From Phyllosticta citribraziliensis (taxonomy: Eukaryota), in the NCBI RefSeq assembly GCF_038025025.1, contig NW_027117342.1, forward strand, positions 1,736,001-1,800,000: a DNA stretch of 64,000 nucleotides, given 5' to 3'. The notes below the pieces were generated by a model. It had not been told where the DNA came from and did not search any database. It saw only the letters and a list, made by a program, of their open reading frames with translations. Made by a program: the position numbers and the translations under genes. Shown here one piece after another: positions 51,501 to 55,339 of this stretch (position 1 is the stretch's first letter; every line of letters starts with the position of its first letter).

Positions 51501-53781
51501 CTTCGGGATCCTTGTGCGTGTTGTCATCGGACTCGGGGTTTTCAATGTAGGGTTTCTTCTGGATTCGGTTGAGGTCCTCGTGGAGGCCATCTACGAGGAA
51601 GCTGAGGAATTCTTGCGAGTCTTGTTGACCATAACCGGAAAACATGGGCTGCGCCCTGCCGAGAGCATACTTGAAGTTTTTGGGGGAGAAGGATGTACTG
51701 GTCGACTCCTCGTAAATCGCCGCCAAAAGACCAGCATAGGCCTTGGCAATGGCTCCGTTGTGACCAAGAGGATTGTCGGGATTCAGTTCCTCTTTATATT
51801 TGTTTTCTAAAATTTGTCAGAACCTGCCCAATACGAGAATTCTTGAAGCACTTACGCAGGAAGTAAGCCGTGAGCTCCTCCACACTCCTGATGCACTGAA
51901 GCGCAGAGTTCATGTAGCAGGTGTTACCAAGATTTGAAAGGCCAACGGTACCCCTAGTTTTTCCATTTTTGGTTCGACCTCTAGTCATCGGGCCACCTGG
52001 GGCTGGGCTACTACGACCGCTGTCGGTCTTCGAATCCAGAGCATTTTTGCCGGCACTGAGGGAGACGCCATGCTTCTGTGCCTGCTTGCGGACGTTGTCT
52101 GACAAAAATTCACCCCCGGCAGGTCCCCCAACCCACTCCTCTAGAATCAAAGTTTGGCTCTCGGCTAGACCAACCAGATCCATCTTAGCCTTACCATTGT
52201 ACTTGGGGTTGTTGGTCTCGTCCTTGTGGTCAATCATTTCTCGTTGGGTCCCTTCAGCCAAGGACGAGAACGCCTGAGCATCTATGAGAAAAGGGGTCGA
52301 TGTGGTCCGCGCCGGAGAGACACTTCTGGAAGTAGCGGGGGTGAGCACGCCAGAATTTCCGGTCTCCTTGGGCGCAGATGCAGGCTGGACGGGCTCCAAG
52401 ACCCTCCAGATCTGAACTTTGCTGGACATGGAAATACCGGCCGCTTCTTTAGCGCGCTTGAGAAAATCTTGGAACTTTTCACTTCGGCTCGATTGCAACC
52501 TGGCGGCAGTTTGCGATTTTTCCCGCAACCGCTGAGGTGTCATGGGTTCGCTGCTGTTGAGCAGCTTGCGAATCGTGAAAAAGGGCGGGTATATCTCATA
52601 CTGAAGGTTCGACGCGTTGGACCCAGGCGGTGCGGTGTCGTGTACATAGCGTATGATTGGAGGGCTTCCTGGTTTGATACCGTACCACGAGACCATTAGG
52701 TTCCAAGCCTCCTCAGGAAAGACTTCGAAATCATCTCCATACTGGAGGTTGGGCTTAATAGGTACGAACATTTGGCCTTGTCCCTCACTGACATGGTCTT
52801 GTACCCAGGCGGAAGCGTCTGGAAGGAAAGGTAAGCTTGTGAAATCCCCCAGAAAGCCAATGTGAACAGACCCATACCTTCCTCGAGGATATCGTCATTG
52901 TCGATAGGACCAACTTCGCCCTCTAGACGTGACTTGTCAAATCCGGAAAACTGTTCCTTATTCGATGACCTGGCTAGAACTCTTGACAACCACCACATGC
53001 TCACAATGTAGCCCTTCTGGCCCTCCTGCAGCTCTTTTTGATGCAAAGCCCATATTTGACCGACTTGCTCGTCTATAGACTTGGACGCGGCAGATTGGTC
53101 TTTCGATGCCGGCGGGGACTGAGCAGCGTCGCTCGTGGCGGTGGTGCTTGCATTGTTGGAGTCGTTGACGGATGTCGATGTCGTTTCGGAGCTACCAAAG
53201 CTAGCCCCTTCATTGTTTTGTTCTTCCCTCAACATGTCGACCGAAGTACCCCTCGTGATACCATTCTCAGCCTCCATCTGCTCCCTGCTGTCATTCTCAC
53301 CGGCCATTTCGGATGCGGACCGCTTTGCGGGCGAGACCGAACGGCGGGATGGCGACTGAGCGATCGAGGGACGTGGTTGAGGCTGTGTAGCTTCAGGAGA
53401 TGCGACAGCCTTCAGCTGCGTCTGTTCTGAGCCAACTGGGGAGCCGCGCCGGCCGGTATTGGAGTTTCCGGTCCTGGATTTGGACTCTAGGCTCAGACCC
53501 GCGTAAGCCTCGCTGGGAGAGCTCCCACCGCTGGCGTTGCTATCGCAGGGAGTGCCGTCGGACTCGGCAACCGTTTCCAACACCTCGTCGCGCAAATGTG
53601 GGGGGATATAACGTGGAGGCGAGGCAGAGGCGCGACTGCCGACGGAGGGAGGGGGCGAAGAGAGGCGCGGCAGGTCTGAGGTTCGGTGACTGTCGGAGGC
53701 AGTAGGGGTCGAGGCAGGCTCTGAGGGTTCGTGTTCCAGAGGAGGGTCCTGGGAGAGCTTCCGCTTCTTGAGTGACGCCGT
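48591..53781 (-). CDS. UBP12: Ubiquitin C-terminal hydrolase Ubp12 (USP4/11/15 type, DUSP domain); 4 exons; first AUG at 53307, proposed ACG start at 53781
   Basis: Cys box [24 protein letters not shown] and His box [16 protein letters not shown] motif GPIDNDDI. Introns 52819-52877, 51807-51855 and 49457-49505; acidic tail. The 5' end is inferred (see findings). Confidence 0.92.
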
Positions 53782-55339
53782 CGTGAAGAAGAGCGGCCTA
53801 CCTGTGGAGCTGCAGTAGCTCCAGCGGCAGGCACAAGTTCTGCGTAGGGCGGCGAGAAACACGGAGAAGGCGGTGGATCAGGGCAGCCGAGAGGAGAAGA
53901 ATCCGGGCCGAGAGTGTTGAGGGCCTGGGTTTCGGAGTCGGAGAAGGTACGAGGAGTTGCAGTGGGAGAGGGCGCGTCAATGGTGCAGACCGGAGGCAGA
54001 AAATTGAGGCTGCCGCGGCGGTGATGTAGGAGGTTGGACCTTTTGGTCTTGTCGGCGCGCGGGAACTGCCGAACAAACAACGCGGCGACGGGAACCTTTG
54101 AGAGGCTGCGAGAAGCCGTCGGCACTGTGCAAGGCGATGGGATGCGATGCGATGCGATGCGGACTAGAGACGACAAGGCAGCGTGGAGGTCAAGAGGATG
54201 TGTCAAGGTCCCAGGGTAGGTAGGGTAGGTACATGTAGGATGCGACGCGCTGGGCGAAACCGACGGACGAGCTTTTCGGGCATGTACAGTACGTATGGAC
54301 TGACTGGTACAGAGGGACTGACTGGACTGGACTGGACTGGACCTACCTTAGCGCGTCGGCTGCCAAAGTCAAAAATTGCCCATGGACGACACACAGGAAT
54401 TCCATGTGCTTCGCTTTTGAGCTACGGACCTGTATCTCTCCTCGTGGCCACGTTCATGTGCTGCTGCCGTGTCATTTTCCATTTCCACGTCCGCCAGGCC
54501 ACGCAAGCCCATCATCTATCCGTCTCGTCCCATCCTAGACATCGGTGGCGGCTGGGATCCCATCCTCTTGTCCACTCGACCACTGTACAGCTCGAGAAAA
54601 CGTCGGCTTGAAAAGCAGTCCTCTCGGAGCTGTGCTGGTGTTGTTGCCCAAGTGATTGGAATGCCCGTGGCAGGAAGGCAGTCAAAAGTGGTGGCCGGCT
54701 CCCCGTCCTCTGCTGCGTAAGGCACATGTACCGGCACCGATGGCGTCGTGGACTTGAAAAAGGCTTGTCTTGACAGTCATGGCATTTGCATTGCCTCTCC
54801 AATGCCTCGGTACTTATACATTCACGTCATGGTTCCGTTGCCAATTCGCCGTCTTGTAGCCACTCAGACGCTCAGCAATAGACATGCTCCGCAACTTCTG
54901 TGGTTGGTCAGGATTCGGACACCATTTCCTTGATCCGCGTTTTTCTCCTTTCCCACAACATGCAACCGGACACACGCCTCAGCATCTTTGATTGCCTGTC
55001 TGAGTCTGTCCTGCCGCAACTGTTGGGTCGTTGCAACTTGCGCCTGTCCCAGGCAGCATGACCAGGTGAGCGGTGCGCGCGCACGCGGACACTGTTACAG
55101 CGCCGGTAAAGCTCCGCGGCGGACGACATCGATCTTCTCTACTACCCGCAACTCTGTGCCATCAACCACCTGCTCAACTATCCTTCATTCAGTCATTTTC
55201 TGCTTGAGACGTCTGGGTGCCTTCACGTTCTGTTCGAGTTTTGTTCTTGTTCCTGTGCCCTCCGACCCACTTCATTCGGCTTTCTCAAGTCCCAACTCTC
55301 CTGAAAGCACAGTCTTCATGGTATCGGCATACCTGCGCC

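Follow-up and report, generated by a model that had tools for sequence, protein, structure and literature searches.

Where does translation of UBP12, a deubiquitinase gene of the fungus Phyllosticta citribraziliensis, begin? The gene lies on the minus strand of a 64,000-nucleotide (nt) stretch of DNA (positions 1,736,001 to 1,800,000 of contig NW_027117342.1, NCBI RefSeq assembly GCF_038025025.1; this whole stretch is called the window here, positions are counted from its first letter, and a minus-strand codon is named by the position of its first nucleotide), and its reading frame is open well upstream of its first AUG. A preliminary description of this DNA proposed that UBP12 uses a non-AUG start codon, ACG 53781, and thereby gains a 158-residue N-terminal extension that carries KKRK, a motif resembling a nuclear localization signal (NLS). 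We followed up this proposal computationally and found it strongly supported by the conservation of the extension as protein, by an ACG and a −4/−3 context that do not vary among the 19 distinct DNA sequences compared, by in-frame stop codons that lie close upstream, and by unspliced contigs of two species. From these we infer that UBP12 translation very probably starts at ACG 53781 and that the protein so made carries the 158-residue, KKRK-bearing extension.

An open frame across the longest ATG-free interval of the window

The minus-strand ATGs nearest to the proposed start are at 54234 and 53307, and the 924 nt between them (54231 to 53308) hold none, exactly as had been described. Their spacing of 927 nt is the longest ATG-to-ATG gap on both strands of the window, in which ATGs occur on average about 16 times per kb per strand and the runners-up measure 714 nt (minus strand) and 440 nt (plus strand). 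The figure of roughly ten ATGs expected by chance, given in the preliminary description, was slightly high, as the segment is 40% C and its local composition predicts 7.1; the point of ATG depletion itself stands, and none of 2000 mononucleotide shuffles of the segment came out free of ATG. About 140 windows of this size are contained in 64 kb × 2 strands, and given that number the gap by itself is suggestive and not decisive.

The UBP12 frame is open from 53877, directly past the TGA at 53880–53878, through the first ATG at 53307, and ACG 53781 lies in this frame 474 nt, or 158 codons, upstream of that ATG. It is preceded by a second ACG, has A at −3 and G at +4, and its product would begin (Met)-Ala-Ser-Leu-Lys-Lys-Arg-Lys. 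Reading the sequence and its translation directly thus bore out the earlier account of the open frame, of the context of the ACG and of KKRK at the would-be N-terminus. The ACG is not an assembly error, since X1 record 6, an RNA contig from this organism described below, has 0 differences from the window over 53267–54750.

Protein conservation of the N-terminal extension

The window's first exon was aligned with 10 orthologues that are 33–64% identical to it and come from several fungal classes (alignment A1). Twenty residues upstream of M165 are invariant in these 11 sequences, among them T7, K11, R13, P62, R63, P66, H68, S94, P95, A98, L104, R153, S156–R160 and S163, and the window's first AUG corresponds to M165 itself, which is an internal Met of the motif SPAKRxxSEM and is at least 90% conserved. 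Motifs of the extension stay unchanged from one fungal class to another, and on this comparative evidence the 158 codons ahead of the first AUG are coding. The part of the extension at 53308–53616 holds several invariant short motifs besides SPAKRxxSEM, and the many Ser-Pro sites of the extension suggest that it may be phosphorylated.

A second, profile-based search brought the set of homologues to 126 proteins from Dothideomycetes, Eurotiomycetes, Lecanoromycetes, Leotiomycetes, Geoglossomycetes, Xylonomycetes and one Sordariomycete. The motif T-[AS]-[SP]-x-K-[KR]-R-[KR] is present in 89 of the 126, and the anchor residue (the T that the window's ACG encodes) is T in 89 of 89 and M in none; the residue before it is T in 69, I in 12, K in 4, N in 3 and F in one, all of which except F have codons that start with A. 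What stands ahead of the motif changes from each gene model to the next, even within the genus Phyllosticta (MTWQQL.., MYSS.. and one partial model). What the database models prepend to the motif is unrelated sequence of 4 to >400 residues, and 37 of the 126 models start inside or after the extension, so genome annotations treat the UBP12 N-terminus inconsistently. Judged from the models themselves, this is the pattern expected when predictors must find an ATG that is not there. An alignment of orthologous upstream regions had been proposed in the preliminary description as a check for KKRK, codon-like change and the ACG; the KKRK positions proved to be conserved in A1 and the motif in 89 of 126 proteins, and the ACG, amid variable third positions, in the 19 DNA sequences described below.

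The classical monopartite NLS consensus is a K-K/R-x-K/R cluster in an exposed region. KKRK fits this consensus, with exposure assumed from the low complexity of the N-terminus around it, and it may mediate nuclear import.

Conservation of the ACG triplet in orthologous DNA

Metagenome contigs were scanned with the PRYIPPHL pattern, the most conserved linear motif of the extension, which gave 30 fungal loci (L001–L030). Two of these were dropped from the codon counts, L018 (cut off upstream) and L028 (chimeric), and the 28 loci kept, together with the window, collapse to 19 distinct sequences (18 metagenome contigs and the window). The dropped locus L028 (1–2854) matches L019 without a difference over the 100 nt that precede PRYIPPHL and is unrelated to it beyond that point, and is probably a chimeric assembly.

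The anchor codon is ACG in all 28 loci and in the window (19 of 19 distinct sequences). Around it, 19 of 19 sequences have C at −4, A at −3 and C at +5, and 18 of 19 have G at +4; position −1 (A 6, C 6, G 6, T 1) and position +6 (C 7, G 6, T 6) vary freely, and the third positions of neighbouring codons likewise vary while the ACG stays fixed. The codon before the anchor may be ACA, ACC, ACG, ACT, AAA, AAG or ATC, yet it is always A-initial. Because the ACG and positions −4 and −3 are invariant while −1, +6 and the preceding Thr codon vary, the ACG is kept as a nucleotide triplet in a start-like context, beyond the coding of Thr. Between the upstream in-frame stop and the ACG there is no in-frame ATG in any of the 28 loci or in the window. 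These stops are 5 to 87 codons from the ACG (5 in L010–L015; 12–13 in L002–L004, L006 and L023–L026), and lying so close they leave no room for an upstream AUG. From the ACG onward the frame is open in all 28 loci.

Transcripts and leader

Four public sequencing runs were aligned to 52650–54750: X1 (same organism), X3 (a relative, organism B), X7 and X10. Runs X1 and X3 are not on record as RNA and their kind was established from intron removal: both skip 52819–52877 and X7 keeps it, and as X1 and X3 remove this 59-nt intron, these two are RNA and X7 is DNA. X3 record 9 is colinear with the genome from 52878 to 54250 and then continues into adapter-like sequence, a hint that 54250 is a transcript 5′ end, and X1 record 6 is colinear with the genome throughout (53267–54750). 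A splice joint into ~53802 was not seen in the RNA contigs of either run. The preliminary description had named an upstream ATG-bearing exon spliced into about 53801 as a finding that would speak against a non-AUG start, and at contig level the unspliced contigs of the two species contradict such an exon. In a leader whose 5′ end is near 54250, ATG 54234 is the only ATG, some 16 nt in from the presumed transcript end of organism B.

Short tandem repeats are present in the leader and promoter region at 54134–54161 (5-mer × 5.6), 54213–54231 (9-mer × 2.1) and 54315–54342 (5-mer × 5.8). In every run aligned, the first of these produces spikes in depth and stray fragments of contigs, and the relatives differ there by small deletions. 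Run X10, which carries another organism label, contributed a single 258-nt leader piece (53921–54177, one difference, depth 2) and no coding region.

A conserved predicted hairpin 5′ of the ACG

The leader contains a predicted RNA hairpin, absent from the preliminary description and a new observation of this analysis, whose 3′ edge in the window is 14 nt before the ACG (Table 1). A hairpin lies just 5′ of the ACG in each of the 19 sequences folded (18 of 18 other lineages and the window). Over the 18 lineages the hairpins have 11–20 bp and a median spacer to the ACG of 13.5 nt, the few smaller spacers coming from weak outer pairs, and in 14 of the 18 no other 45-nt window within ±400 nt is as stable as that of the hairpin (its ranks elsewhere are 1, 1, 4 and 15 of 139). 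The mean folding z over these lineages is −2.67 at −56 to −7 and +0.20 at +7 to +56. Four loci, L016, L020, L023 and L030, have quite different stem sequences with a hairpin at the same place.

When 13 sequences were aligned by fitting them to the structure model, 81.7% of cells pair, compared with 33–56% when the partner is slid; in this model-fitted alignment 5 of 15 hairpin pairs change on both sides, and the covariation score was reached by 0 of 500 shuffles. The covariance model (R1) gives significant E-values only for its 13 source sequences. It places the divergent hairpins of L030, L023, L026 and L027 correctly at E-values of 1.3–4.2, which are not significant, and it did not find those of L016 and L020. 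A search of Rfam 15 with 53250–54800, both strands, gave 0 matches at E ≤ 1.

The sequence upstream of the ACG is conserved even where it carries in-frame stops, which we attribute to its folding as a hairpin, and in models from Eurotiomycetes and Geoglossum the seemingly conserved peptide "RAAT..GQL" that precedes the motif matches the two strands of the stem. As a separate observation, the 285 nt around the ACG and the hairpin (53707–53991) have no X3 substitution among the 40 of 48 differences that are listed, while flanking coding sequence differs every 30–40 nt.

Gene structure and feature coordinates

The gene encodes Ubp12/UspA, a deubiquitinase of the USP4/11/15 type in fungi that has DUSP and UCH domains. 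The closest protein match is a Phyllosticta citrichinensis protein with 96% identity over the query, followed by proteins of other Botryosphaeriales. Pfam UCH matches the window's exon 3 (1.1e-41), and the 96%-identical orthologue (P0004) has DUSP (1.5e-16) and then UCH (1.7e-62); the Cys-box sequence of the UCH catalytic domain is visible in the window translation. The coding region comprises 1677 codons from the ACG and 1519 from AUG 53307. The divergent neighbour at 55208–57907 on the plus strand encodes a DUF726 protein (Pfam 3.3e-119). In organism B one X3 contig stops at 54250 and a second extends from 54430 toward the DUF726 gene, which suggests a bidirectional promoter of ~180 nt between these two positions.

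Table 1. Positions of UBP12 features in the window.
Feature	Position	Strand	Basis
Whole UBP12 coding region, from the proposed ACG start	48591..53781	-	tblastn of P0004, splice sites read, Pfam UCH and DUSP matches
UBP12 exons	53781-52878, 52818-51856, 51806-49506, 49456-48591 (including stop)	-	P0004 alignment and splice sites
Intron 1 (59 nt, GT..AG)	52819..52877	-	joint 52818>52878 in X1 and X3, absent from DNA run X7
5′ leader, ~470 nt, unspliced, upstream limit approximate	53782..54250	-	X3 record 9, X1 record 6
Only ATG near leader 5′ end; 14-codon upstream open reading frame if transcribed	54190..54234	-	read from sequence
In-frame TGA closing the UBP12 frame upstream	53878..53880	-	read from sequence
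Conserved predicted RNA hairpin in leader, two stems, 14 bp	53796..53832	-	-25.8 kcal/mol, z -3.12 (folding)
Proposed ACG initiation codon	53779..53781	-	in frame, 158 codons before first AUG
Initiation context, positions -4 to +5	53777..53785	-	conservation in 19 distinct DNA sequences
N-terminal extension, codons 2-158, upstream of first AUG	53308..53778	-	open frame; invariant residues in 11 aligned sequences
KKRK, classical monopartite NLS-like motif, residues 5-8	53758..53769	-	K11 and R13 invariant, K12 at least 90% conserved in A1
PRYIPPHL, most conserved linear motif of the extension	53593..53616	-	P62, R63, P66 and H68 invariant in A1
First mRNA AUG in UBP12 frame, possible second start	53305..53307	-	start of database models P0010 and P0011

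Alternative explanations

The extension could owe its start to an upstream exon with an ATG if that exon were joined at an acceptor immediately ahead of the conserved region (CAG 53803–53805), and this is how the database model of the closest relative (P0004) is built: its ATG is equivalent to 54475, its intron is ~628 nt long, and its first 15 residues match the window at 54475–54430 joined to 53802. A YAG does stand at the acceptor-like place in several lineages, including the in-frame TAG of L010–L015. However, that conserved YAG belongs to the 3′ arm of the hairpin, with which the opposite arm co-varies, the RNA contigs of two species cross 53802 unjoined while the nearby 59-nt intron has been cleanly removed from them, the residues before the motif are different in every model, even between congeners, and no CTRAY branch site was seen by eye upstream of 53802 in the window. 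We consider a spliced upstream exon unlikely. It is also quite unlikely that another near-cognate codon in 53877–53782 serves as the start, alone or together with ACG 53781. GTG 53862, AGG 53799 and the first of the two adjacent ACGs (53784) are all in frame with no stop before ACG 53781, and tandem near-cognate starts are known in other genes, for example the two adjacent ACGs of yeast ALA1; but in other lineages these three codons are replaced by different ones or lie behind in-frame stops, GTG 53862 and ACG 53784 both have T at −3, and the stretch 53877–53782 is partly hairpin, so that the apparent "protein" conservation there is explained by base pairing.

A reading in which AUG 53307 is the sole start, and the frame upstream of it an untranslated leader that is open by chance in C-rich sequence, can draw on two database models that start at this AUG (P0010 and P0011), on the 40% C of the leader strand, which disfavours stop codons, and on close-range X3 substitutions that lack codon periodicity. 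It fits poorly with the several motifs that are conserved by residue across fungal classes with variable third positions, and with a frame that is open from the ACG onward in all 28 loci, and we regard it as very improbable. The same must be said, more strongly still, of C-to-U editing that turns the ACG into AUG in the RNA, perhaps guided by the hairpin. Editing of ACG to AUG makes start codons in plant organelles, and an invariant ACG beside a conserved structure would suit an editing target; we know of no such editing of nuclear mRNAs in these fungi, and although minority edited reads would be hidden in contigs, the same-organism RNA contig has 0 differences from the genome over 53267–54750 and none is listed at 53779–53781 for X3.

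Initiation at ACG 53781 remains the preferred explanation, and several observations weigh against it or against parts of its support. The DNA sample consists mostly of Dothideomycete-like contigs, and some of the 19 sequences are closely related (L010/L012/L014; L023/L026/L027). Ser is the second residue in 58 of the 89 motif-bearing homologues, so +4 cannot be G in these, and six open reading frame calls (P0027, P0032, P0040, P0044, P0046 and P0114) begin with M a few codons before the anchor, so that a genuine AUG may serve in their lineages. Within the extension, the 14 X3 substitutions that are listed fall 6/2/6 at codon positions 1/2/3 with no third-position excess at this short distance, a tally that is uninformative between such close species. 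The window organism's X1 contig extends upstream to at least 54750, so the transcription start is not fixed, and transcripts that reach beyond 54250 would carry several upstream AUGs. The RNA evidence consists of assembled contigs, which drop rare isoforms and carry no strand, and a minor spliced form is possible. As for the hairpin, its pair counts come from an alignment fitted to the structure model and lean toward that model, RNAalifold on the raw MAFFT alignment of 18 leaders, in which the stems are out of register, gave no pairs, and a hairpin of about −25 kcal/mol in a leader could equally impede scanning.

Proposed mechanism

We propose that scanning 43S complexes would load on the AUG-poor leader, unwind the hairpin and reach the ACG, and that Met-tRNAi would initiate at ACG 53781 in a context preferred in fungi (C at −4, A at −3, G at +4 and C at +5). 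The predicted product is a 1677-residue protein with the nuclear-import-like motif KKRK in its first residues, followed by the conserved short motifs. According to a 2026 preprint, the exit-channel clamp holds mRNA positions −9 to −14, and positions −17 to −20 lie on eIF3a/d. Given this placement, a stem that ends at −15 would, with the ACG in the P site, have just cleared the exit channel of the 40S subunit and re-form at its mouth. Such a re-formed hairpin might hold the complex on the weak codon, or it might gate or regulate the flow of ribosomes to the ACG.

Complexes that pass the ACG may reach AUG 53307 and give a 1519-residue form without KKRK, about 17 kDa smaller than the predicted long form. 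The preliminary description supposed that one mRNA makes a nuclear long isoform and a shorter one, in a ratio that depends on start-codon stringency; both the existence and the regulation of such a pair are conjectural. Beyond the ACG, a complex that did not stop there would encounter no more than one out-of-frame AUG, whose reading frame closes before the in-frame AUG, so a shorter form is possible. Two findings count against the two-isoform idea: the first in-frame AUG does not keep its place from lineage to lineage, and in 13 of the 19 sequences there is one weak out-of-frame AUG between the ACG and the first in-frame AUG. These out-of-frame AUGs have a pyrimidine at −3 and open frames of 4–65 codons that end before the next in-frame AUG. 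An out-of-frame ATG recurs at +76 to +88 from the ACG in L001, L005–L007, L010–L014, L019 and L023–L027. ATGs between the ACG and the first in-frame AUG number 12, where codon shuffles predict 24.9 and the equally long stretch that follows holds 107.5, a depletion that is suggestive but biased by the way the segment is defined and is therefore not counted toward a second isoform. The further conserved motifs of the extension make the long form look like the main functional protein.

More tentatively, and with considerable doubt, the hairpin and the ACG might act as one unit, in which refolding of the hairpin at the mRNA exit of the 40S subunit, as a backstop or as an anchor that contacts eIF3, raises or regulates initiation at the ACG just as this codon arrives in the P site, a mirror image of the classical hairpin downstream of a start. 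Such a unit might have been kept across Pezizomycotina, with the ACG never becoming AUG, because it gives a tunable ratio of nuclear NLS-bearing to AUG-initiated cytoplasmic Ubp12/UspA. The single C-to-T change that would make the codon ATG is absent from all 19 DNA sequences and all 89 proteins, which argues that selection favours the weakness of the start.

Comparison with known systems

The nearest precedent is the ACG-initiated (NCC8) extension of CPC1, the product of cpc-1 (Ivanov et al. 2017, PMC5487733), in which the ACG is reported to be conserved in 98 of 100 Pezizomycotina species with a conserved A at −3 and G at +4. The two cases share the subphylum, a conserved near-cognate ACG with the same bases at −3 (A) and +4 (G), conservation of the extension at the protein level, and automated annotations that include the extension without resolving its start (PMC5487733). 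As described there, cpc-1, unlike UBP12, has several candidate near-cognate codons, two regulatory upstream open reading frames (uORFs) and an extension that bypasses uORF2; UBP12, unlike cpc-1, has a single conserved ACG, a nearly AUG-free leader, an N-terminal NLS-like motif and a conserved hairpin just upstream. The terms ubiquitin, ubp, hydrolase and NLS are absent from the main text of PMC5487733, the supplement of which may list further genes. In the library searched we found no paper linking Ubp12 with non-AUG initiation and, by title and abstract, none on an upstream hairpin that enhances initiation.

Ubp12/UspA acts together with the COP9 signalosome in the development and secondary metabolism of fungi. 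A. nidulans UspA, S. pombe Ubp12 and human USP15 are described as COP9-signalosome-associated deubiquitinases in PMC6627422, and UBP12 belongs to the same family, with the same DUSP and UCH domains. In the same study the published A. nidulans UspA is the annotated 1418-residue AUG form, which gives a signal that is for the most part perinuclear, a small pool being nuclear, and binds the karyopherins KapB and KapF; the terms NLS and start codon occur 0 times each in it (PMC6627422). The Aspergillus orthologues in our homologue set carry T-S-S-T-K-R-R-K upstream of their annotated Met, and by analogy with these congeners A. nidulans uspA may have an ACG extension as well. If ACG initiation is true, most database N-termini of Ubp12 are wrong, 37 of 126 starting downstream and the rest carrying unrelated, invented N-termini, and published work on AUG-defined UspA has left ~160 conserved residues, including a likely NLS, unconsidered. 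The extension may then explain the split of UspA between the nuclear periphery and interior and its karyopherin partners.

Near-cognate starts that add targeting sequences are familiar from other organisms: the tandem ACG ACG start of yeast ALA1 gives a mitochondrial form, and the CUG-initiated forms of human FGF2 are nuclear. UBP12 resembles both in having a near-cognate start upstream of an AUG that would add an N-terminal targeting sequence, and the window also has two adjacent ACGs; it is unlike them in that the second ACG alone is conserved and the extension carries further conserved motifs. A Kozak-type hairpin downstream of a weak start codon, ~14 nt from it, enhances recognition of that codon. 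The UBP12 hairpin is similar in being stable and at a fixed ~14 nt from a weak start codon and different in lying upstream, on the exit side, with no excess structure downstream (mean z +0.20 at +7 to +56 over 18 lineages). This pairing of a hairpin with a near-cognate start offers a natural case in which to ask whether exit-side structure affects start-codon choice.

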